Positions 2,403 through 16,356 of a stretch of DNA of 26,655 bases are shown piece after piece (positions within the stretch are counted from its first letter, which is position 1; the number at the start of each line of letters is the position of its first letter). Origin of the DNA: an archaeon (GTDB lineage Archaea; Undinarchaeota; Undinarchaeia; Undinarchaeales; Naiadarchaeaceae); assembly GCA_037442905.1 (NCBI GenBank), contig JBBIPJ010000001.1, positions 1 to 26,655 of the forward strand, given 5' to 3'. The notes below the pieces were generated by a model. It saw only the letters and a list, made by a program, of their open reading frames with translations, ran no database searches and was not told the origin of the DNA. The translations under genes and the position numbers were made by a program.

Positions 2403-3998
2403 TTATCCTGAATTCCCGCTTATTACTCCTCTTATAGCATCATTATATCTCAGCGCCCTTCTAATTTGCTCCCCATATTTTCCTTTCAGTTTAACACGAA
2501 CCGCGGCCTCTTTTCCAAGTTTAGTTTTAAACAGGAAATTTTTTCCTGCATAAACTTTAATATCTTTATTTGCAGCAGCTTCTCCAAAATCCAAAATATA
2601 TTCTGTTTTTGCATGCGCTAAAGTTGCAATAACTTCTTTCGGCGCTTCCCCCACTTTCATTATAACAGTTTCCTCTCCATAGGTATACATCTCATACTCA
2701 ACTCTGTTGGTTTCAAAATCTCTTACCTCAACAACAGGCCTTGCTAAATCTGATTCAAACATTCCTGCAGGAACTTTTACAGTTAATTTTGTATCGTATA
2801 CTTTTTTAATTTCCGCATCCTTGATGTAAATTACTGTGTCAACTATCAGCGGAATCTGTCCTAATTCTAAACGAATAACCATTCTCTGCAGCGCATCAAT
2901 TGGGGCAGAAGCATGAGTAACTCCAACCATTCCAACTCCTGCTAAACGCATATCTGCAAAAATTTGGAAGTCCTGCGTTTTTCTTACCTCATCATAAAAA
3001 GTGTAATCAGGGCGCACAAGCAAAAGCACATCAGCTGTTTTTGCCATCTGTCCTTCTAAAGGAGCATACTGAGTTATTTCAGGCTGTACCTGCAAATCTC
3101 TCGGGCTTTCCATAGTTTTTACAATTGATTTTTTCTCTTTTACAAAAAATTCTGCAAGCGCTGCTGCAAAACTTGATTTCCCAGCGCCTGGCGGGCCGCA
3201 AATCAGCACGCCTTCTGCTTTTTCTTTCAATCTTCTCAGTAATTTATCAGATAATTTATAAGATTCAAGTGAAACCTTTGCAATTGGACGAACTGCTGTT
3301 ACTTCCAGTCCATCAGAAAACGGCGGCTCTGCAACTGCAATCCTGAAATCTCCCATCTGCACGACTGTTGCGCCTTTCATTGAAATTTCAATTGCCTGAT
3401 TTTCCCTTCCATAATCAATTACTTCCTTTACAATTTCGCTTAACTCCTGCTCGTTCATTTTTTCTTTTCCTAATTCAACAAGCCTTACATTTCCTGGCCT
3501 GCCCTTTTTTGCAACAGGAACAGTATTTACTTTTAAATGAACGCTCATAGTTTCCTTGTCAAAAAATTCCTGTATGCGCGGCTTTTCGCGAATTTTTTTC
3601 TCAATATACCTGCAGTTAATTCCTCTTGCTAAAGCAACTTTATACTGAATGTAATCAGCAGTTAAAAGAGTTGCATTTAATTTTGCAGCTGTATTTCTGA
3701 TTAAAGCATCTATTACTCCAAATTGTGCAGCTTTTATCTCCTCAACTGTGGGAAGCCCTCCATAAAAAGTTAATTTTATCTTTCCTTCTTTCTCAACCTC
3801 TTTTAATTTTGCAATTTCATCCAATCCTTCAAATCCAATCGCTCTTCCTTTGTTTGCCTGATTCTCCAATTCAGAAAGAACAACTTCCAAAATTATAATC
3901 TCTCCGCTGAGTTCTCCAGATTCAATCAGTTTTGAAACCTTAGCTCCAATAAGGACTGAGGTATCCGGAACAGTTCTCTCATTCAATTTAGTTTCCAT
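2403..3998 (-). CDS. PIN domain + PilT-family ATPase (PINA, COG1855 type)
   Basis: N-terminal PIN (VPDTSVLI...ELENQAN...DALI...LLTAD), Walker A GPPGAGKS, KTMESPRDL, LLVRPDYTFYDEVR, DMRLAGVGMVGVTHA. Confidence 0.92.
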   Translation of the reverse strand: METKLNERTVPDTSVLIGAKVSKLIESGELSGEIIILEVVLSELENQANKGRAIGFEGLDEIAKLKEVEKEGKIKLTFYGGLPTVEEIKAAQFGVIDALIRNTAAKLNATLLTADYIQYKVALARGINCRYIEKKIREKPRIQEFFDKETMSVHLKVNTVPVAKKGRPGNVRLVELGKEKMNEQELSEIVKEVIDYGRENQAIEISMKGATVVQMGDFRIAVAEPPFSDGLEVTAVRPIAKVSLESYKLSDKLLRRLKEKAEGVLICGPPGAGKSSFAAALAEFFVKEKKSIVKTMESPRDLQVQPEITQYAPLEGQMAKTADVLLLVRPDYTFYDEVRKTQDFQIFADMRLAGVGMVGVTHASAPIDALQRMVIRLELGQIPLIVDTVIYIKDAEIKKVYDTKLTVKVPAGMFESDLARPVVEVRDFETNRVEYEMYTYGEETVIMKVGEAPKEVIATLAHAKTEYILDFGEAAANKDIKVYAGKNFLFKTKLGKEAAVRVKLKGKYGEQIRRALRYNDAIRGVISGNSG

Positions 3999-6966: not shown

Positions 6967-6969
6967 GCA

Positions 6970-7034
6970 ATGCTCTACGCTTTGCTTCGAGCATCTCTCG
7001 CTTCGCTCGAGATGGGCAGTGGGCTCACAGCCCA
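6970..7034. repeat. Cluster of REP-like hairpins
   Basis: ATGCTC/GAGCAT (6970-6994), CATCTC-TCGCTTCGCTC-GAGATG (6992-7014), TGGGCT-CAC-AGCCCA (7020-7034). Confidence 0.7.
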
Positions 7035-7073
7035 AAGCCAAAACTTATTAATTACTTCAAAGAACCATCTAAT

Positions 7074-7133
7074 GCGATGATGTCCTCATTTGTCTCGAGC
7101 TTTTGCGATGAGATGAGATGGGCGGACTGAGCA
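7074..7133 (+). ncRNA. Candidate C/D-box guide sRNA (predicted target 16S rRNA C1402, E. coli numbering)
   Basis: C-like box (GCGATGA 7074-7080 or ATGATGT 7077-7083), D'-like TCGA 7095-7098, C'-like GATGA motifs 7107-7116, D box CTGA 7127-7130. TATA-like TTATTAAT at 7045-7052 and a T-run after 7135. Guide GATGGGCGGA is complementary to the conserved 16S sequence CCGCCCGUC. Confidence 0.6.
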
Positions 7134-7155
7134 ACTTTTCTGCGGAATTTTTGAA

Positions 7156-7218
7156 AGCTTGCGGCTAGCAGCTTGTAGCTTGCAGCCATATTACTGCGAC
7201 CGCTAGCTGAAAGCTAAT
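7156..7218. repeat. Degenerate 7-bp periodic array
   Basis: In-phase units agcttgc ggctagc agcttgt agcttgc agccata ttactgc gaccgct agctgaa agctaat. Confidence 0.65.
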
Positions 7219-7891
7219 CATTCGGTCGCGGCGCATATTCAGAGTCAAAATTTCCATAAGTCAAAAGTTTTACTTCCTTTTCCTTTACGAATTTCCTGAC
7301 AAATTTATCCAGATTTTTTATATCCGGCGCGCCGTAATAAATTTCTTTCCTGTCATTTTCCGGAAAATGGCTAAGGGAGCTCTCGTACAAAATCTTTCCA
7401 AGTCCGCGGCTGCGCAAATTTTTCGCAATCCAGATTATTCTTAAGCTCAGCTTGCGCTCTTTTTCTCCTTTAACGCGGATGCGGACATAGCAGGCATATC
7501 CGGTTAATTTTTCTTTGTACAAAAGAAGGAACATATGATGTTCTAAATGCGGTTCAAATAAAGGAATGTCAAATCTATATGTTGGCTCGGAATAATTCTG
7601 GTCAAACATTACAGCGTAGGCAATGTTTTCAGCAGCCTGCCTTTCTTTATCAGAGGAATCATTTGTTACAAGTGCAATTTTTATCCCATTTTGCTCATCA
7701 TTATAAATCAAATGCGCAAATTTTGTATCACAAATTTTCTGATGGCGATCGCGCAGCTTAAAATCTTTAAAATTTTTGAAACATTTGTCACAGGCAAAAT
7801 ATAGAATAGGAGAATCTGCTATTTCCTCTGAATCAGAATTAAACATTCCGCGGGTTTTTCCTTTAAGTTCTTTTGGAGTAAATAAGGCCAT
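7214..7891 (-). CDS. C2HC zinc finger + acetyltransferase (GNAT-fold) protein
   Basis: CDKC-x12-H-x3-C (aa 34-54) and acetyl-CoA-binding motif A, IIWIAKNLRSRGLGKILYE. Confidence 0.75.
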   Translation of the reverse strand: MALFTPKELKGKTRGMFNSDSEEIADSPILYFACDKCFKNFKDFKLRDRHQKICDTKFAHLIYNDEQNGIKIALVTNDSSDKERQAAENIAYAVMFDQNYSEPTYRFDIPLFEPHLEHHMFLLLYKEKLTGYACYVRIRVKGEKERKLSLRIIWIAKNLRSRGLGKILYESSLSHFPENDRKEIYYGAPDIKNLDKFVRKFVKEKEVKLLTYGNFDSEYAPRPND

Positions 7892-7899
7892 AAATAGAA

Positions 7900-8955
7900 T
7901 TACTCAGGAAACATGTTTGGAAACATTACAACTTTCCCGCATCTTCCCTCTTTCATCACTTGAATTGCCTTTTCAAATTCATCCAGTTTGAATTTATGAG
8001 TAACAATTGGAGAAATATCAAATTTTTTATCTGCAAAAAGTTTTTTCATTAAATTCCAAGTGCGCGGAATTTCGCGGCCATAAATTGCTCGGATTGTGAT
8101 ATCTTTCAGAACAACATCCCTGCTCCACATTAAGCATACTTGTTGCGGCGGCAATCCAAGAAGTGTTGCCTGACCGCCAGGCTTTAAAACTTTCAACCCT
8201 TGCTCAATTGCTGTCTGGCTTCCTGCCATTTCATAAAAAACATCAACCCCTTCACTATTTGTTTCCTCTTTTATTCTTTCAATAACATCTTCCACATGGC
8301 GGTTAACAATAACATGTGCGCCGACTTTTTTTCCAAGTTCCATGTGTTCAACAGTTCCGCTAATAGCAATGATTTTTTTTGCACCCCAATGCCTTGCAAC
8401 TGCAATTGCAAACAATCCTGTTGGCCCAAGACCGAAAACAGCAATTGTTTTTCCTTTCACAGGGCCTGCTGAAACTGTGTAAACACTATTGCCTAGAGAT
8501 TCATGTAGAGTTGCTATCTGCGGAGGCAATTTTGGAGAAACTTTAAATAAAACATGCTCAGGGACAACAATATGTTCAGCATAACTCCCATTGATATCAA
8601 TTCCAACTGCTTTTATGTTTAAGCAAGTGTGCGGCCTTCCGGCTTTGCACTGAGAACATTGACCGCAATAAATATGGCTTTCATTCGCAACTGTATCTCC
8701 AACTTTTAATTTTTTAACTCCTTGCCCTATTTTTTCTACAACTCCTGTAAACTCGTGCCCAATAATTCTGGGCGGTTTAATTCGTGTGTCCCACGGAGTG
8801 TCATTATTGTAGATGTGAACATCAGTTCCGCAAACAGAACAAGCCTTAACTTTAACCAAGACTTCCCCTTTTCCAGGATTCGGAATCGGAGCATTAATTA
8901 ATTCAAATCCAGGCGAATTTTTTGTCTTTGCAACAGCCTGCATTTTTTCTGGCAT
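7900..8955 (-). CDS. tdh: L-threonine 3-dehydrogenase
   Basis: CGTDVHIY, GHEFTG, ESHIYCGQCSQCKAGRPHTC, GLGPTG; adjacent to kbl. Confidence 0.92.
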   Translation of the reverse strand: MPEKMQAVAKTKNSPGFELINAPIPNPGKGEVLVKVKACSVCGTDVHIYNNDTPWDTRIKPPRIIGHEFTGVVEKIGQGVKKLKVGDTVANESHIYCGQCSQCKAGRPHTCLNIKAVGIDINGSYAEHIVVPEHVLFKVSPKLPPQIATLHESLGNSVYTVSAGPVKGKTIAVFGLGPTGLFAIAVARHWGAKKIIAISGTVEHMELGKKVGAHVIVNRHVEDVIERIKEETNSEGVDVFYEMAGSQTAIEQGLKVLKPGGQATLLGLPPQQVCLMWSRDVVLKDITIRAIYGREIPRTWNLMKKLFADKKFDISPIVTHKFKLDEFEKAIQVMKEGRCGKVVMFPNMFPE

Positions 8956-10140
8956 CTAAATCACATTTAATTTTTTTCCTATCTTTTCAAATTTAGAAAT
9001 CGCCTCATTTAAAATTTCCTTGTTGTGTGCAGCAGTCGGCATTGTTCTTATGCGTGCTTTTCCCTGTGCAACCATTGGGTAGAAAATCGGAATTGTAAAA
9101 ACTCCCTCATGCATTAGCTCAGCGGCAAAATCCTGCGCTGTTTTGCTCTCTCCCAGCATAATCGGAGTTATGGGAGTTTCAGAAACTCCTATATCAAAGC
9201 CCAACTTTTTCAATGCTTTTTTATAATAGCGCGTATTTCTCCAGAGTTTCTTGACAATTTGTGGTTTTTCCATCAAAAGTTCAATTGCAGCAGTGCAGGC
9301 AGCAACTGTTGCTGGCGGCGCGCTCCCGCTTAAGAGCCAACTACGTGATTTGTTCAGAGCCCATTCGCGCAAATATTTATTTCCTGCAACATAACCCCCA
9401 ACAACTCCAAAGGCTTTTGAAAAAGTTCCCATTTCAATATCAATTTTTCCTTCCAAACCAAAATGATTTACAGCTCCTCTTCCGCCCTCTCCCAAAACTC
9501 CTTCTCCGTGTGCATCATCAACATAAGTAATTGCTCCAAAGTGTTTTGCAAGCTTTGAAATCTCAGGAAGCGGTGCTATATCCCCATCCATTGAGAAAAC
9601 TCCGTCAGTAATTATTAAAATTCTCCTGTATTTTCCATGCGCTTCTTCTAACAATTTCTTTAGCTCATCAGTATTTTTGTGCGGGAAAACTTTTCTTTCT
9701 GCTTTTGTCAATCTAACTCCATCAATTATGCTCCCGTGATTTAACTCATCGCTAATTATTAAATCCCCTTCTCCAACAAGCTGTGCAAGAACACCAGCAT
9801 TTGCAGCATATCCTGTCTGGAAATAAAGAGCTGATTCACGATGTTTAAATTCTGCAATTTTTTCTTCAAGCCTGTTGTGCAAATCCATTGTTCCTGCAAT
9901 TGCTCTTACAGAACCACTGCCTGCGCCGTATTTTTTGGTTGCAGCAATTGCAGCCCTTTTTAATTTTGGATGGTTTGATAATCCAAGATAGTTGTTTGAG
10001 CATAACACAATTACTTCTTTTCCATCAACAATTGCTCTTGGAGTAGACGGGCCTTGCAGTTCTCTAATCTTCCAGTCTAAATTTTTTGCCCTAAGCTCAT
10101 CCACCTCTGTCTTAAAAAATGCAGTTGGATCGTTTTCCAT
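8956..10140 (-). CDS. kbl: Glycine C-acetyltransferase (2-amino-3-ketobutyrate CoA ligase)
   Basis: SNNYLGL, GSGSVRAIAGT, DELNHGSIIDG, DGVFSMDGD, DDAHGEG, GTFSKAFG. ATG 10140 is preceded by GGGAG, and pairing with tdh favours Kbl over BioF. Confidence 0.9.
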   Translation of the reverse strand: MENDPTAFFKTEVDELRAKNLDWKIRELQGPSTPRAIVDGKEVIVLCSNNYLGLSNHPKLKRAAIAATKKYGAGSGSVRAIAGTMDLHNRLEEKIAEFKHRESALYFQTGYAANAGVLAQLVGEGDLIISDELNHGSIIDGVRLTKAERKVFPHKNTDELKKLLEEAHGKYRRILIITDGVFSMDGDIAPLPEISKLAKHFGAITYVDDAHGEGVLGEGGRGAVNHFGLEGKIDIEMGTFSKAFGVVGGYVAGNKYLREWALNKSRSWLLSGSAPPATVAACTAAIELLMEKPQIVKKLWRNTRYYKKALKKLGFDIGVSETPITPIMLGESKTAQDFAAELMHEGVFTIPIFYPMVAQGKARIRTMPTAAHNKEILNEAISKFEKIGKKLNVI

Positions 10141-10175
10141 TACTCCCACTAATTCCCTAGAATTTAGTCTTCAGA

Positions 10176-10183
10176 TTTATAAA
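10176..10183. promoter_or_regulatory. Palindromic TATA box between divergent kbl and MVD genes
   Basis: TTTATAAA lies 25 nt from ATG 10208 (+) and 36 nt from ATG 10140 (-). Confidence 0.55.
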
Positions 10184-10207
10184 GCTTGTGTCACTATGAC
10201 TATTATT

Positions 10208-11221
10208 ATGGCTCTAATTACTTCAGAGTCTCACCCAAACATAGCTCTTGTTAAGTATTGGGGGCAGAGAAACTCAGATTTGTATTTGCCTTACAATTCA
10301 AGCATTTCAATTACTCTGAATTCTAAATTATGGACGCGAACTTCTGTTTCTACATCAAAAGAATTGAAAAAAGACGAAGTTTATTTGAATAAAAAGAAAT
10401 TAAGCGGCGCAAAATTAAAGCGCGCATTAAGGCAACTGAATTATTTGCGCAAAAGTAATTTTATTTCTAAAAAAACAAAAGTAAAAATTACTTCAATAAA
10501 CAATTTTCCAACAGGAACTGGAATTGCTTCCTCCGCTTCTGGATTTTCTGCACTGGCATTTGCACTGAATAAACTGTTTAAATTAAATCTAAGCAAAAAA
10601 GAGCTTTCAGTTTTAGCAAGAATAGGAAGCGGCAGCGCGGCGCGTTCAGTTTGCGGAGGATTTGTTCTCTGGCAAAAAGGGGAATTAAAAAGCGGAGAAG
10701 ATTCCTTTGCCGTGCAAGTTAAAAAAGAAAATTTCTGGGCAGAGTTAAGGGATTTAATTGTGATTGCTGAAACAAAGGAGAAAAAAGTTAATTCTATAGA
10801 GGGAATGCAGCGCTGCGTGAAAACAAGCCCGAGCTTTATGCATAGAATTCAGGAAGCGGAGTATAGAGTTGAAAAAATTAAGCGCGCAATTCTGAAAAAA
10901 GATTTTGAAACTCTAGCAATTGAAACAATGCATGATTCTGATAGAATGCACAGCCTGATTGCAGAAGCAACTCCAAAATTTTCTTACTTAAATTCTGTCT
11001 CAAAAAATATAATTAACTCCGTGCGCGCGTTTAACTCAGACGGAATTAAAGCTGCCTATACCTTTGATGCAGGCCCGAATGCACATGTTTTAACCCTGAA
11101 AAAAAATGTAAGTGAATTAAAACAAAATTTGCTTAAAATAAAAGGTGTTAAGGAAATTATTGAGGCAAAAGTCGGGGGCGGGCCAAAGATTATTAAGAAA
11201 GAAGCGCCCATTTCCAAATAG
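10208..11221 (+). CDS. mvaD: Mevalonate (di)phosphate decarboxylase family; probably phosphomevalonate decarboxylase
   Basis: HPNIALVKYWG...PYNSSISITL, FPTGTGIASSASG, GSGSAARS, YTFDAGPN. The start is trimmed from the ORF-track 9992 on the basis of family length and TATA position. Confidence 0.9.
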   Translation: MALITSESHPNIALVKYWGQRNSDLYLPYNSSISITLNSKLWTRTSVSTSKELKKDEVYLNKKKLSGAKLKRALRQLNYLRKSNFISKKTKVKITSINNFPTGTGIASSASGFSALAFALNKLFKLNLSKKELSVLARIGSGSAARSVCGGFVLWQKGELKSGEDSFAVQVKKENFWAELRDLIVIAETKEKKVNSIEGMQRCVKTSPSFMHRIQEAEYRVEKIKRAILKKDFETLAIETMHDSDRMHSLIAEATPKFSYLNSVSKNIINSVRAFNSDGIKAAYTFDAGPNAHVLTLKKNVSELKQNLLKIKGVKEIIEAKVGGGPKIIKKEAPISK

Positions 11222-11259
11222 TTTAAATATTTATAAATGGAACTTACATGCTCACTAGG

Positions 11260-11420
11260 GAGAATGCTTCGTAAGTAAACTTACTCGCACACAAAGGAAT
11301 AAAATTCCTTCACAAAGGGTAGCTTCAATTGGTCAAGTACTTCACTTGATAAGCAACTACCCTTTGTGTTTGCGCACACGAAACCGGAGGTTTCGTGTTG
11401 TCTCTCACTTCGTTCGAGAT
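11260..11420. repeat. Cluster of REP-like hairpins including a 58-bp palindromic element
   Basis: Nested hairpin 11260-11289; AAGGAAT-AAA-ATTCCTT; CACAAAGGGTAG...CTACCCTTTGTG (11311-11368); ACACGAAACC-GGA-GGTTTCGTGT (11376-11398); TCTC-TCACTTCGTTC-GAGA (11401-11419). Confidence 0.8.
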
Positions 11421-12351
11421 GACAAATCCAATAACAGCATCCGCTCCGGCCAAACTCATTTTGTTTGGGGAGCACATTGTTGTCTATGGAGAGCCTGCAA
11501 TAGCAACTGCTCTTGATAAGCGAGCATATGTAACAGCAATCACTCTAGATGAGAAAAAAATTGTTGTGCGCTCAAAAAATTTGGGAAACGAGATTGAAGC
11601 CTCTTTTAAGGAGCAAACAAAAGATCCTGTAGTAAGAGCTGCTCAAGTTGCACTTGAAAAAACAAAGGCAAACAAAGGAGTTCAAGTAGAAATAAATTCC
11701 GAGATTCCTGTTTCTGTTGGTTTGGGGAGCAGTGCATCAGTTTCAGTTGCAACAGCAGCTGCTATCTTAAAACTTTTTTCTGAAAAAGAGCCATCAAAAT
11801 TTGAAATTATGGCAGTGGCCCATGAGGCTGAAAAAATTGCTCATGGAAATCCAAGCGGAATTGATACTGCAATTACAACCTTTGGCGGCACAATATTTTT
11901 TAAAAAAGGCGAGATTGAAAGCTTGGGCGCTCCCCAAATGGAAATAGTAGTTGGAAATACAAAAGTTCCAAGAAACACAAAAGAAATTGTTGAAAATGTA
12001 AAAAAAATTATTGAAGACCCGCGAGTTGCTTACAATCTTTTTACAATAAGCTCAATAGTTAGAAGAGCGCGCGAAGCCTTATTGCGCTCAAATCTTACAG
12101 AAATCGGGCATTTGATGAATAAAAACCAAGAGTTTTTAAGGGCGCTTGGAGTAAGCTCTGTAGAATTGGAGCAATTAATCCAGGTTGCACAGCAGGCAGG
12201 TGCATACGGAGCTAAATTAACAGGTGCTGGCGGTGGAGGATGCATGATAGCTTTGACAGACAGTCCTGAAAAAATTCAGGATGTTCTAAATAAAAGGGGG
12301 GCAGAGGCATTTGTTGTAAAAACAAATCAGGCTGGAGTAAGATATGAGTAA
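11419..12351 (+). CDS. mvk: Mevalonate kinase
   Basis: SAPAKLILFGEHIVVYG, IPVSVGLGSSAS, HGNPSGID, GAKLTGAGGGG. Confidence 0.95.
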   Translation: MTNPITASAPAKLILFGEHIVVYGEPAIATALDKRAYVTAITLDEKKIVVRSKNLGNEIEASFKEQTKDPVVRAAQVALEKTKANKGVQVEINSEIPVSVGLGSSASVSVATAAAILKLFSEKEPSKFEIMAVAHEAEKIAHGNPSGIDTAITTFGGTIFFKKGEIESLGAPQMEIVVGNTKVPRNTKEIVENVKKIIEDPRVAYNLFTISSIVRRAREALLRSNLTEIGHLMNKNQEFLRALGVSSVELEQLIQVAQQAGAYGAKLTGAGGGGCMIALTDSPEKIQDVLNKRGAEAFVVKTNQAGVRYE

Positions 12352-13132
12352 AAAAAGAAAACCTTTAATCTTTGTAAAATTGGGCGGAGCTGCAATTACA
12401 TTTAAGGATTTTCCTAAAAAAGCAAATGATTCTGTAATAGATAGTTGCGCTCAGCAGATTGCAAACCTAAAAGATGAATATAGATTTTTAATCGGCCATG
12501 GAGGAGGCGGATTTGCTCATCCAATTGCTGCAAAATACAAAATTCATGAGGGTTTAAAAATTTGTGGCGCAGAAGGAATGGCTGAAACACACCGCGCTGT
12601 TCGCGAGCTGAATAGCATTGTTGTAAATTATTTAATGGATCGCGGAATTCCAGCATTTTCTACTTATGCGTCCAGCTGTGTTCTTTCAAATGGTGGAAAA
12701 ATTAAGGAATTTTACACAAAGCCAATAAAAGAATTGCTTGCAAATGAAGTAGTTCCAGTTATTGGAGGGGATGTTGTTCCTGATATTAAAAAAGGATGTT
12801 CAATTGCTTCCACAGAAATGATTTTTTCCACTCTAATTAATGAAATGAAGCCAAAAAGAATTATTGTTGGAACAGATGTTGACGGAGTTTACATCACAGA
12901 AGGCGGCGATGAAAAGGTTGTGCCTGAAATAAATAGAAAAAATTTTAAGAAAGTCTATGAATCAATCGGGAGCTCCAAATATACAGATGTTACAGGAGGA
13001 ATGAAACACAAAGTTGAGGAACTCTATGCAATCTCTAGAAAAGGAATCCAAATCCAAATAATAAATCTTCTAAAGGAGGAGAATTTAAGCCGCGCAATTC
13101 AAGGAGAGCGCGTTGGAACTTTAGTAAAGTAA
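12344..13132 (+). CDS. ipk: Isopentenyl phosphate kinase
   Basis: Amino-acid-kinase fold: VKLGGAAITFK, GHGGGGFAH (signature His), TDVDGVY, DVTGGMKHK. Confidence 0.93.
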   Translation: MSKKRKPLIFVKLGGAAITFKDFPKKANDSVIDSCAQQIANLKDEYRFLIGHGGGGFAHPIAAKYKIHEGLKICGAEGMAETHRAVRELNSIVVNYLMDRGIPAFSTYASSCVLSNGGKIKEFYTKPIKELLANEVVPVIGGDVVPDIKKGCSIASTEMIFSTLINEMKPKRIIVGTDVDGVYITEGGDEKVVPEINRKNFKKVYESIGSSKYTDVTGGMKHKVEELYAISRKGIQIQIINLLKEENLSRAIQGERVGTLVK

Positions 13133-14191
13133 ATGACTCCGGGAACATCTGACAGGAAATTGGAACACATAAAAATTGTTAGCAGGAAAAATGTTCAAGC
13201 TAAGCAAAAAACAAACTGGCTTGAGTATGTTGATTTAGTCCATAATTCAGTTCCGGAATTAAACAAAAAGGATATTAATTTGTCTGTAAAATTTTTGGGG
13301 CACAAATTGGATTACCCAATTTTAATAAGTGGAATGACAGGCGGGCATTCTGTTGCGCAAAAAATTAACGAAACGCTTGCGCGCGCAGCAGAAAAGGCAA
13401 ATGTTGCAATGGGGGTTGGCTCGCAAAGAGCAATGCTGGAAAATCCCAAGCTTGCTTACACCTATCAAGTCCGCGAATATGCACCATCAATTTTTCTTAT
13501 TGGCAATTTGGGGATTCCTCAGCTTGAAAAATACAAAACAAAAGGCGTTTTGAAAGCTGCAAAATCAATTGGGGCGAATGCTTTTGCAGTTCACTTAAAC
13601 AATTTGCAGGAAGTTGTGCAAAGAGAAGGGGATGTTAATGCAAAAAACTACTTTAAACACTTGAAAAAAATTTGTTCATCTGTTAAAATCCCGATTATCG
13701 CAAAGGAAACAGGAGCAGGAATTTCAAGAGAAGCTGCAAAATTATTAATTAAGGCAGGAGTCTCTGCAATAGATGTTGGCGGTGCAGGAGGAACCTCCTG
13801 GGGCGCTGTTGAAATTCTTCGCGGCAGAGCAAGCAAATCAAGTTCTATTGCCTTCTGGGATTGGGGAATCCCGACAGCAGCAAGTATTTTGGAAGTAAGA
13901 AGTGTTTCTGAAAAAATCCCGTTAATTGCTTCCGGTGGTTTAAGAAACGGATTAGAAGCAGCAAAATGCATAGCTCTTGGCGCTGATTTAGTTGGAATGG
14001 CATATCCATTTTTCAAAGCTGCTGAAAAAGGAACCTCTGAGGTAATAAAAACAATAGAAGAAATCGGAGAGGGAATTAGAAATGCTATGTTTTTAGTCAG
14101 CGCACGAAACATAAACGAGTTAAAAAATTCAAAATTTATAATCCAAGATAATTTATTGGATTGGGCTTTGTGGAGGGGATTGGGAAAGTAA
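13133..14191 (+). CDS. fni: Type 2 isopentenyl-diphosphate isomerase
   Basis: RKLEHI, ISGMTGG, GVGSQRA, HLNNLQEVVQREGD, KETGAG, GGAGGTSW, ASGGLRNG. Confidence 0.96.
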   Translation: MTPGTSDRKLEHIKIVSRKNVQAKQKTNWLEYVDLVHNSVPELNKKDINLSVKFLGHKLDYPILISGMTGGHSVAQKINETLARAAEKANVAMGVGSQRAMLENPKLAYTYQVREYAPSIFLIGNLGIPQLEKYKTKGVLKAAKSIGANAFAVHLNNLQEVVQREGDVNAKNYFKHLKKICSSVKIPIIAKETGAGISREAAKLLIKAGVSAIDVGGAGGTSWGAVEILRGRASKSSSIAFWDWGIPTAASILEVRSVSEKIPLIASGGLRNGLEAAKCIALGADLVGMAYPFFKAAEKGTSEVIKTIEEIGEGIRNAMFLVSARNINELKNSKFIIQDNLLDWALWRGLGK

Positions 14192-14194
14192 TTT

Positions 14195-15061
14195 ATGGGT
14201 ATAAAAAAAATTTCTTTATCTGAAAAATTGAAAATTTTAATTGAAATAAGCCGCCCTGTAAACATTTTAATGGTTATTTTTGGAATTATTATTACACTTG
14301 TTGCCGGGCTTGAAAGTATCCCACCTTTAGGGCTTTTGCTTCCAGCGGTTATCGCTGCTGCGTCAATCGCAGCTGCCGGAAATGCTATAAACGATTACTA
14401 TGACATTCAAATCGATCGAATTAATCGCCCTGAGCGCCCATTGCCTTCTGGAAAAATAACACAGCGCGGAATCTGGGGATATGCTATTTTTTTGTTCGCA
14501 ACTGGAATAATTGTTTCTATATTGCTGACACTTGCAAACTTTGTTCTTGCTTTTGTAAATTCTGTTCTTCTAGGAATTTATGCCTATAGATTAAAGCGAA
14601 GCGGATTTTTTGGAGATATTGTAATAAGTTATTTAGTGGCATCTGTCTTTATTTTCGCGGCGCTTGCAATCCATTCTCTGAAAATAGGATTTATTCTTGC
14701 AGTAGCAGCATTTTTCACAAATTCTGCGCGCGAAGTTCTGAAAGATTTGGAAGATATAAAAGGGGATAAACTCTTTGGAGCAAGAACTTTGCCACTTTTA
14801 ATTGGAAGAAAAAAATCAATCATAATTGTCAGCTCTTTTTTAATAGTTTCAATTTTAGTTAGCCCACTTCCATTTACGCTTGGAATTTTAAAATGGCCAT
14901 ATCTTGCTGTTGCAGCTCTCGCTGATTTTATTTTTCTTGACATAATTTATCTGCTCAATAAAAAAACTGACAAAAAAACTATTGCGCTGAATCAGAGGCT
15001 GATAAAATTTGCTGCCCTGACCGGCTTGCTCGCCTTTTTGGCTGGTGTGCTTCCTGTCTGA
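14195..15061 (+). CDS. Digeranylgeranylglyceryl phosphate synthase (UbiA family)
   Basis: NAINDYYDIQIDRINRPERPLPSG, AREVLKDLEDIKGD, multi-pass membrane protein, lipid-cluster context. Confidence 0.88.
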   Translation: MGIKKISLSEKLKILIEISRPVNILMVIFGIIITLVAGLESIPPLGLLLPAVIAAASIAAAGNAINDYYDIQIDRINRPERPLPSGKITQRGIWGYAIFLFATGIIVSILLTLANFVLAFVNSVLLGIYAYRLKRSGFFGDIVISYLVASVFIFAALAIHSLKIGFILAVAAFFTNSAREVLKDLEDIKGDKLFGARTLPLLIGRKKSIIIVSSFLIVSILVSPLPFTLGILKWPYLAVAALADFIFLDIIYLLNKKTDKKTIALNQRLIKFAALTGLLAFLAGVLPV

Positions 15062-15070
15062 GCATAAAAC

Positions 15071-15078
15071 TTTATAAG
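15071..15078 (+). promoter_or_regulatory. TATA box upstream of the duplicated egsA start
   Basis: AAAAC-TTTATAAG just after the DGGGP synthase stop. Confidence 0.5.
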
Positions 15079-15105
15079 AGGCTTGCACAGATACTTTCTG
15101 CTTTC

Positions 15106-15331
15106 AATAGGCCTAGAAAAATGACTGCAAGAAAAATTGAATCCCCACAGCCGACGACATGAACGTTTATCCGACTTTGAATCGGCTGGCGCTTCGGACT
15201 ACATCACAAAGGGTAGGTTTATTAGCTAACCACTTTGATAGCTATCCAGCCTACCCTTTGTGTAGGGGCATTCTCGCTGCGCTCGAAGCCCCTAAATAGG
15301 CATAGAAAAATGACTGCAAGAAAAATTGAAT
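15106..15331 (+). repeat. 37-bp direct repeat (15106-15142 and 15295-15331) flanking a 152-bp hairpin cassette
   Basis: AATAGGC(C/A)TAGAAAAATGACTGCAAGAAAAATTGAAT, 36/37 identical. It contains the egsA start and first 7 codons; the first copy gives the mini-ORF MTARKIESPQPTT* (15121-15162). Confidence 0.92.
15143..15294. mobile_element. Putative non-autonomous hairpin cassette (REP/MITE-like)
   Basis: CAGCCGA/TCGGCTG stem (15147-15188), 58-bp palindrome (15205-15262), GTAGGGGC...GCCCCTA hairpin (15262-15294), flanked by the 37-bp duplication. Confidence 0.55.
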
Positions 15332-16356
15332 TTCCAAGAATAGTAATTGTTGGCAGCGGAGCCACTGAGCAGATTGTTGAAGTAGTTGATGAAATAAGCC
15401 CTGGAAAAAATGCCTTAATTACCTCAGGCCCGCAAACCATGCAAATAGCTGGAAATAAAGTAAAGAAATTGCTTGAAAAATCTGGGTACAAAGTTTTCCA
15501 CCAGCGTTCCGAGGTTGCGGATGAAAAAACAATTTCTGCAGCCCAGAATCAGATAAAGCAGCACAAAATTAACATTGCTCTTGGAGTTGGGGGTGGAACA
15601 AGTATTGATGTTGCAAAGCTCTCCTCGTCTAGAGAAAATGTTCCATTCATTTCTGTTCCAACAGCTGCTTCGCATGATGGAATTTCCAGCCCAATTGCAT
15701 CAATAAAGCAGGATGGAAGTTTTAAAAGCTATCCTGCAACTGCGCCAATTGCAATTGTTGCAGATGTCTCAATAATTAAAACAGCTCCAAGAAAAATGTT
15801 AGCAGCTGGATGTGGAGATTTGCTTGCAAATTATACTGCAGTTGAGGATTGGAGACTTGCACACAAGTTAAGAGGGGAATATTTCGGAGAATATGCAGCC
15901 GCTCTTTCAATTATGAGCGCAAAAATGATTCTGGATAATTATGAAATTTTAAAAAATCCAAATGAGGAATCCATTAAATTAGTTGTTGAAGCATTGATTA
16001 GTTCAGGAGCAGCTATGTGCATTACAGGAAACTCTCGCCCGTGCAGCGGGGCAGAGCATATGTTTTCTCATGCTCTTGATAAATTGACTCCGAATCATGG
16101 ATTGCATGGAGAGCAATGTGGAATTGGAACAGTTATGATGGCATATTTGCATAAATTAGACTGGGAAAAATTCCGCGATGCTTTAAAAGCTGTTGGCGCC
16201 CCAACTAATGCTTCTGAATTAGGAATTGATTCAGAATTAATAATAAAAGCACTTACAATAGCGCACACAATCAGGGATAGGTATACAATTTTAGGAACAA
16301 ACGGATTGAGCGAAGAGGCAGCAAGAGATTTGGCAAGGAAAACAGGGGTTATATAA
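15310..16356 (+). CDS. egsA: Glycerol-1-phosphate dehydrogenase [NAD(P)+]
   Basis: GVGGGTSIDVAK, SVPTAASHDGISSP, AGCGDLLAN, SRPCSGAEHMFSHALD, LHGEQCG. Confidence 0.96.
   Translation: MTARKIEFPRIVIVGSGATEQIVEVVDEISPGKNALITSGPQTMQIAGNKVKKLLEKSGYKVFHQRSEVADEKTISAAQNQIKQHKINIALGVGGGTSIDVAKLSSSRENVPFISVPTAASHDGISSPIASIKQDGSFKSYPATAPIAIVADVSIIKTAPRKMLAAGCGDLLANYTAVEDWRLAHKLRGEYFGEYAAALSIMSAKMILDNYEILKNPNEESIKLVVEALISSGAAMCITGNSRPCSGAEHMFSHALDKLTPNHGLHGEQCGIGTVMMAYLHKLDWEKFRDALKAVGAPTNASELGIDSELIIKALTIAHTIRDRYTILGTNGLSEEAARDLARKTGVI

Follow-up and report, generated by a model that had tools for sequence, protein, structure and literature searches.

A rare finger-bearing GNAT of an undinarchaeon with probable distant kinship to the MYST, Eco1/ESCO and alpha-TAT protein acetyltransferases

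The MYST and Eco1/ESCO acetyltransferases are core enzymes of eukaryotic chromatin and cohesion, and their prokaryotic roots are poorly documented. In MYST proteins (KAT6A/MOZ, KAT7/HBO1, KAT8/MOF, Tip60, Esa1 and Sas3), a C-x2-C-x12-H-x3-C finger (zf-MYST, PF17772) is placed between N-terminal strands and the catalytic core (MOZ_SAS, PF01853), in a domain of about 270 residues that ends in a C-terminal helical extension. Catalysis relies on a Cys on strand beta4 (C304 of Esa1) and on a Glu (E338 of Esa1). Eco1/ESCO enzymes (zf-C2H2_3, PF13878, with Acetyltransf_13, PF13880), whose cohesin targets are lysines of the Smc3 head, combine a compact finger with a GNAT core in about 200 residues. 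The Eco1 finger resembles that of MYST proteins and raises activity (PMC5349539). The tubulin-type enzymes alpha-TAT1/MEC-17 (Acetyltransf_16, PF05301) have no zinc finger, and neither does the type B histone acetyltransferase HAT1, which carries a larger N-terminal domain. On the prokaryotic side, MOZ_SAS acetylases were mentioned for Lokiarchaeota in a survey (10.1101/2021.11.30.470311), and no earlier description of a prokaryotic MYST/Eco1-like finger-GNAT family was found beyond that remark (subscription journals not covered). Here we describe P0001, a gene at positions 7214-7891 (minus strand) of a 26,655-nucleotide stretch (the window; contig JBBIPJ010000001.1 of assembly GCA_037442905.1) from an archaeon of the Naiadarchaeaceae. 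The product of P0001 is probably a compact protein acetyltransferase that binds zinc and has distant homology to MYST, Eco1/ESCO and alpha-TAT; it belongs to a rare prokaryotic family.

The P0001 open reading frame (ORF) runs from an ATG at 7889-7891 to a TAG at 7214-7216 and encodes 225 residues; conservation among its homologs begins at M1. The protein consists of N-terminal strands, a C2HC zinc finger and a GNAT core, in that order. Residues 1-33 (7793-7891, minus strand) contain three short beta strands (15-17, 23-25 and 30-33), modeled with a predicted local distance difference test (pLDDT) score of about 94 at residues 11-30. The finger occupies residues 34-54 (7730-7792, minus strand), is of the beta-beta-alpha type, and has the pattern C34-x2-C37-x12-H50-x3-C54, opening with L30-Y-F-A-C34-D-K-C37. 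The core spans residues 55-210 (7262-7729, minus strand), as defined by a Pfam Acetyltransf_1 match (E=6e-6; 27 bits versus a cut-off of 20.7, which places the protein in the GNAT superfamily), by the secondary structure of the model, and by fold matches. Its modeled elements are beta1 (70-75), a helix (81-98), three strands (118-125, 128-140 and 146-155), and a second helix (157-174) with the elements that follow. Motif A, R160-S-R-G163-L-G165 (7397-7414, minus strand; consensus Q/R-x-x-G-x-G/A), is the predicted acetyl-CoA pyrophosphate-binding loop; R160 is invariant and G163 nearly invariant across the family, and HMMER pairs the motif with Q-R-K-G-Y-G of KAT6A. The motifs listed in a preliminary description of this DNA, made from the sequence alone, were all found in the translation: in addition to the finger, these are I62-Y63 and I70-K-I-A-L-V75, L129-T-G-Y132, the motif A stretch I152-IWIAKNLRSRGLGKILYE170, and the C-terminal I184-YYGAPD190 and L194-DKFVRKF201. 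That description had also placed a MYST-like C2HC finger directly before the acetyltransferase core, and this was borne out, with C34, C37, H50 and C54 aligned by HMMER to the KAT6A finger.

None of the four metal ligands varies among the 16 aligned family members, including those that are only 19-27% identical to P0001, indicating that the finger is not a chance pattern. The finger is not exclusively MYST-like, as it is also matched by classical C2H2 fingers (CTCF, ZBTB17) and by consensus C2H2 fingers. A separate observation concerns P0014, an 862-residue, eukaryote-like multi-finger metagenome protein with six C2HC fingers of the form Y/F-x-C-x2-C-x3-F-x7-R-H-x-K-x-C, which match the family finger at E=3.5e-6; this match shows that the family finger belongs to the classical C2H2-like type, with Cys as its last ligand.

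The P0001 family is rare. When 1.84 billion representative proteins were searched exhaustively with a profile, 14 matches at E <=0.001 were obtained, among them nine distant proteins of 149-232 residues (seven of them 192-232 residues) that share the finger-plus-GNAT layout. All four ligands are kept in seven close homologs (67-82% identity), and one homolog of 69% identity is labelled Candidatus Naiadarchaeales, an order of the DPANN phylum Undinarchaeota (PMC7414124). Family members were found in Naiadarchaeales, in one Chloroflexi metagenome-assembled genome (MAG), on metagenome contigs that carry an archaeal TFB gene, and on archaeal contigs resembling mobile elements; their annotations read no more than "GNAT family N-acetyltransferase" or "hypothetical protein". 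Among 17 genomes of the phylum, a full-length member was present only in the genus of the window. In the 16-sequence alignment, S79 and R160 are invariant in addition to the four ligands, and E83, F121 and L168 are nearly so. The family tree separates two clades (ultrafast bootstrap 95): clade A contains the Naiadarchaeales sequences and the Chloroflexi sequence, and clade B contains all other members. Homology between the two extends over 200 columns (hhalign probability 99.4%, E=3.3e-21), and the N-terminal strand region is common to both, from column 10 of that alignment. A word-indexed search with a wide alignment added no further members, and a four-sequence alignment found no relatives in GTDB genome contigs or IMG/VR. 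No members were detected among longer proteins at E <=0.01, which is weak evidence against fused forms.

Profile searches of the PDB placed MYST proteins on top. With the 16-sequence family profile, KAT6A was the best match (E=2.4e-8, 36.8 bits), in a single alignment of profile positions 35-175 with chain residues 30-159 that runs from the finger through motif A, followed by KAT7 (1.8e-5), KAT8 (about 6e-4), Tip60 and SAS3. The profile of clade B alone also ranked KAT6A first (3.1e-6), and a profile of clade A plus the clade B member P0013 reached it at 8.4e-4 (positions 30-173). A core profile from which the finger had been removed still found KAT6A at 3.8e-4, over a longer stretch (profile positions 8-116) than generic GNATs and including the first core helix. 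The helix after beta1 resembles the MYST sequence Y-C-Q-N-L-C-L-L-A, most clearly in clade B (I-C-E-R-I-S-R-I-S). A profile of the C-terminal half gave generic matches. No ESCO chains appeared in the PDB profile searches at the E-values listed, and with the C-terminal-half profile none appeared at E <=10. Single-sequence PDB searches with P0001 and with P0011, the Chloroflexi member, returned nothing informative. Among Pfam models, zf-MYST matched eight of the 16 members (best E=1.5e-4; highest score in the family, 21.8 bits), while MOZ_SAS and Acetyltransf_13 each matched two weakly, the latter at E=0.011-0.02. P0013 scored 35.5 bits with Acetyltransf_16, above the Pfam cut-off, and reached alpha-TAT1 chains at 4.9e-6. 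As judged by these profiles, the MYST signal is genuine, but it is carried by the finger together with the N-terminal half of the core.

The predicted structure points to the same group of enzymes. An AlphaFold2 model built from 22 sequences reached a pLDDT of 83.4 and a predicted template modeling score of 0.83, with pLDDT >90 through residues 11-90; an earlier model from eight close homologs had a pLDDT of 43.7, and no conclusion rests on it. In a Foldseek search of the PDB, every one of the top 50 rows was a MYST domain or HAT1, with MOZ as the best match (E=1.1e-6) and MYST rows of about 175-210 columns. VIA-align comparisons (48,161 representative chains, then Foldseek's best 1000) gave the highest Z scores to Eco1/ESCO proteins, with root-mean-square deviations (rmsd) of 3.1-3.9 Å over 143-169 residues: xEco2 scored 14.0 (model residues 59-217), Esco2 13.8 (169 residues, model 6-212), and ESCO1 13.2-13.5 (model 10-204 and 33-215). 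MOF, KAT6A and HBO1 followed at Z 12.0-12.6, with about 175 residues superposed (model 10-208) and the same range of rmsd, together with alpha-TAT (12.0-12.6, model 33-216) and HAT1 (12.1-12.6, 179-185 residues, from model residue 10-12). Generic GNATs scored 10.5 or less and were aligned over the core only, from model residue 59-71, whereas the longest ESCO, MYST and HAT1 alignments take in the N-terminal strands and the finger, from model residue 6-12. Because ESCO, MYST, alpha-TAT and HAT1 fall within about 1.5 Z of one another, the structure assigns P0001 to this group but does not discriminate among its members.

Comparison with the ESM Atlas extended this picture to predicted proteins. 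By shape, MYST clusters were found at a template modeling (TM) score of 0.63-0.65 and ESCO clusters at 0.59, together with a Gemmatimonadota hypothetical-protein cluster at 0.61/0.74, 21% of whose members carry Acetyltransf_13. By language-model features, ESCO and MYST clusters were among the top neighbors, as was a bacterial cluster in which 48% of the members match the ESCO finger model. The statement in the preliminary description that ordinary prokaryotic GNATs lack such a finger thus needs qualification, since finger-bearing ones exist, for example in these bacterial clusters.

In both the profile and the structural searches, therefore, MYST/ESCO-type proteins came out on top and P0001 was not placed among generic GNATs. 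P0001 is a GNAT, but it is a member of neither MYST, ESCO nor alpha-TAT. The order of strands, finger and core is that of MYST proteins, and the best sequence-profile matches are to them. However, zf-MYST remained below threshold on P0001 (12.6 bits, E=0.11, residues 23-54 on profile positions 25-55 of 55; 14 bits at 7730-7825 in a whole-genome scan; cut-off 28.8), and MOZ_SAS had no match in the genome of the window, its best score in the family being 18.9 bits (P0013) against a cut-off of 32.2, with matches that end at position 109 of 180. In the HMMER alignment to KAT6A, the column of the catalytic Cys is occupied by Ile152, and that of the autoacetylated Lys (K274 of MOF, K262 of Esa1) by Pro103. 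The latter column contains P, S, T or R in the members of the family and is aligned to the K of L-D-H-K-T-L-Y-Y-D, in a loop whose alignment is approximate. The region of the catalytic Glu lies beyond the aligned stretch, and E183, the closest candidate, is not a conserved residue of the family. With a length of 225 residues, P0001 cannot contain the C-terminal MYST extension: it ends 17 residues past the last MYST-aligned residue (208 of 225), leaving about 90-100 residues of each MYST chain unmatched. P0001 is also prokaryotic and has no chromo, PHD or Tudor partner domains.

The other named families show a similar mixture of likeness and difference. P0001 shares with Eco1/ESCO a compact finger-plus-GNAT build and the highest structural scores, but is matched by neither ESCO Pfam model. 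The beta4 motif L-R-(I/L)-(I/V)-W of clade A may recall the R-I-W-V of ESCO; it is not used as evidence. The likeness to alpha-TAT lies in the fold and in P0013, whose Asp aligns within the strand (V/I)-(L/I)-D-F-Y-V; P0001, by comparison, has a finger that alpha-TAT lacks, no PF05301 match, and Ile152 in the column of Asp157, whereas P0013 has both the match and the Asp. In this column, which lies eight residues ahead of motif A, clade A has Ile or Leu and clade B has Asp. HAT1 resembles P0001 in fold, N-terminal part included, but gave no sequence signal in any search. Ard1/SSO0209 and generic GNATs (Acetyltransf_1) have motif A and the core fold in common with P0001, but lack the finger and the N-terminal strands, and their sequence alignments are limited to the motif A/B region. 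The proposal in the preliminary description of a MYST/Eco1 relative consequently stands as an affinity of profile and fold, but does not extend to membership by Pfam models or catalytic residues.

The missing Cys and Lys and the sub-threshold Pfam scores weigh against kinship with the MYST and ESCO enzymes, and further observations must be set beside them. The profile of close homologs alone reached KAT6A only at E=0.13. The finger-less core profile ranked the archaeal N-alpha-acetyltransferase SSO0209 first (7e-6), and the drop of KAT6A to 3.8e-4 in this search attributes roughly one third of the MYST score to the finger. The structure was predicted from no more than 22 sequences, and Z scores of 12-14, compared with about 10 for generic GNATs, represent a margin and not a gulf.

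Given its affinities, P0001 is most likely a zinc-dependent protein lysine acetyltransferase. In the mechanism that we propose, C34, C37, H50 and C54 would hold one Zn2+ ion in the beta-beta-alpha finger, which, together with the three N-terminal strands, is predicted by the model to pack against the GNAT core. Acetyl-CoA would bind at the beta4-alpha3 loop, R160-x-x-G163-x-G165, as expected from the universal GNAT motif, and the acetyl group would be passed to the epsilon-amino group of a lysine in a protein substrate. A lysine target is suggested because all of the top structural neighbors are protein lysine acetyltransferases. The finger may help to hold a macromolecular substrate, by analogy with MOF and Eco1. 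With Ile or Leu at the Cys/Asp position, clade A must use another base or a substrate-assisted route. Candidate bases, conserved across the family or within the clade, are E83, H118, Y132, E170 and Y185/Y186.

In the window, P0001 is the last gene of a string of three on the minus strand. The string begins with a glycine C-acetyltransferase gene, kbl (8956-10149; NF005394, 485 bits versus a cut-off of 460), followed by a probable L-threonine 3-dehydrogenase gene, tdh (7900-8955; TIGR00692 at 385 bits and NF003808 at 375.5 bits, both just under their cut-offs). The gaps are 0 and 8 nucleotides: the tdh stop codon lies at 7900-7902, and P0001 starts 8 nucleotides after it, as the preliminary description had noted. 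Contigs of an 80%-identical relative show the same string. In relatives at 67-69% identity, tdh and the acetyltransferase gene are separated by a 303-residue gene on the opposite strand, and distant members occur in unrelated contexts without kbl or tdh, which together indicate that the tdh link is local. The suggested co-transcription with the acetyl-CoA-producing kbl-tdh pathway accordingly holds up as plausible within this genus, where P0001 is probably co-transcribed with these genes, but the link is not conserved in the relatives at 67-69%.

Several other features of the neighborhood were noted. The 303-residue ORF of the 67-69% relatives (L016:2823-3734 was compared) is Cys-rich and probably secreted. 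In the 80%-identical relative, a 203-residue ORF overlaps the 3′ end of the acetyltransferase gene (the region L002:4719-5330 was compared with window positions 6967-7213). Neither ORF was found anywhere in the window by tblastn. At 2403-3998 (minus strand), the window encodes a 531-residue protein with an N-terminal PIN domain and a T2SSE/STAND-like ATPase, whose gene keeps the same relative position in Naiadarchaeales contigs. Divergent from kbl, at 9992-16356 (plus strand), is a series of genes that serve the synthesis of isoprenoids and archaeal lipids, which is notable for a DPANN genome of <1 Mb. They code for a mevalonate diphosphate decarboxylase-like protein, a GHMP kinase, an isopentenyl phosphate kinase-like member of the amino-acid-kinase family, an IDI2-like FMN-dependent dehydrogenase, a UbiA prenyltransferase, and a glycerol-1-phosphate dehydrogenase-like protein (Fe-ADH_2).

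Three other explanations for P0001 were considered. In the first, P0001 would be a GNAT of the ordinary prokaryotic kind, with protein N-termini or a small molecule as its substrate, and would have gained a C2H2-like finger independently, so that the likeness to MYST and ESCO would be composite. The leading position of archaeal N-alpha-acetyltransferases in the core-only search fits this explanation, as do the generic matches of the C-terminal half, the affinity of the finger to CTCF, ZBTB17 and consensus C2H2 fingers, and the loss of MYST catalytic residues with family-specific Pfam models below threshold. Set against it, KAT6A is found even without the finger, over a longer stretch than generic GNATs; the best structural matches run through the strands and the finger and stand above all generic GNATs; the Foldseek top 50 contains only MYST and HAT1; and the finger has the same position relative to the core as in MYST and ESCO. 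Independent gain of the finger is therefore regarded as unlikely.

The neighborhood bears on a second explanation, in which P0001 would serve threonine catabolism by N-acetylating a pathway by-product, such as the amine from 2-amino-3-ketobutyrate, with acetyl-CoA supplied by kbl-tdh. The tight packing of the three genes, kept in the 80%-identical relative, would suit such a role, but the intervening opposite-strand gene at 67-69% identity and the distant members without kbl or tdh do not, and the nearest folds are all protein acetyltransferases. A zinc finger would also be unusual for a small-molecule GNAT. A metabolic function is thus considered quite improbable. Distant members, on the other hand, raise the question of a mobile-element-derived effector or GNAT-type toxin, borne by a plasmid or virus, that acetylates a host factor and was later fixed in one Naiadarchaeales genus. 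One contig with a distant member carries a primase (PriCT_1) and many small ORFs, another has integrase, HTH_45 and PIN genes, and the spread is very patchy: of the 17 genomes available for the phylum, only those of one genus have the gene. However, no antitoxin-like gene is adjacent to P0001 in the window, and its housekeeping neighborhood is stable across Naiadarchaeales contigs. PADLOC returned nothing for P0001 (and one sub-threshold match for member P0017), the PHROGs matches, all of them to other members, were to generic acetyltransferases, and BFVD gave only generic GNAT matches. We regard a mobile-element origin of this kind as very improbable. A finger-bearing protein acetyltransferase with distant kinship to MYST, Eco1/ESCO and alpha-TAT remains the favored explanation for P0001.

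The assembly, 78.6% complete, totals 783 kb in 138 contigs; the stretch itself was found in one sequencing run only, a subsurface metagenome that is possibly the assembly's own source, and no RNA run containing it was listed. Genes for a histone (65 bits; G000:C3:17219-17407) and for Alba (80 bits; G000:C18:5430-5618) are present in the genome, and their products are the obvious candidate substrates of P0001. No Sir2 or histone deacetylase (HDAC) gene was found in this 78.6%-complete assembly. In the Chloroflexi MAG, the family member P0011 (L020:6001-6648) lies two genes downstream of a Hist_deacetyl HDAC-family gene (L020:4130-5284), with a gene for a TPR protein between them; the HDAC-family gene and P0011 could be a writer/eraser pair, of which this is a single instance.

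The features that recall the eukaryotic enzymes are spread over different members of the family: a MYST-like finger and first helix, an alpha-TAT-like D-F-Y strand, and an ESCO-like compact fold. The family appears to be a minimal, prokaryotic form of finger-GNAT with a place between MYST, ESCO and alpha-TAT. It is conceivable, though we hold it to be somewhat unlikely, that it is a surviving branch of the stock from which eukaryotic MYST, Eco1/ESCO and alpha-TAT arose. If so, three families that are usually treated apart would be linked and given a prokaryotic origin, and a simple chromatin-type writer would exist in archaea that have histones and Alba. The P0001 family would serve as an outgroup for rooting the relationship of MYST, ESCO and alpha-TAT, while P0001 itself, at 225 residues, would provide a tractable model for the role of the finger and would be a candidate writer of protein acetylation in DPANN archaea.

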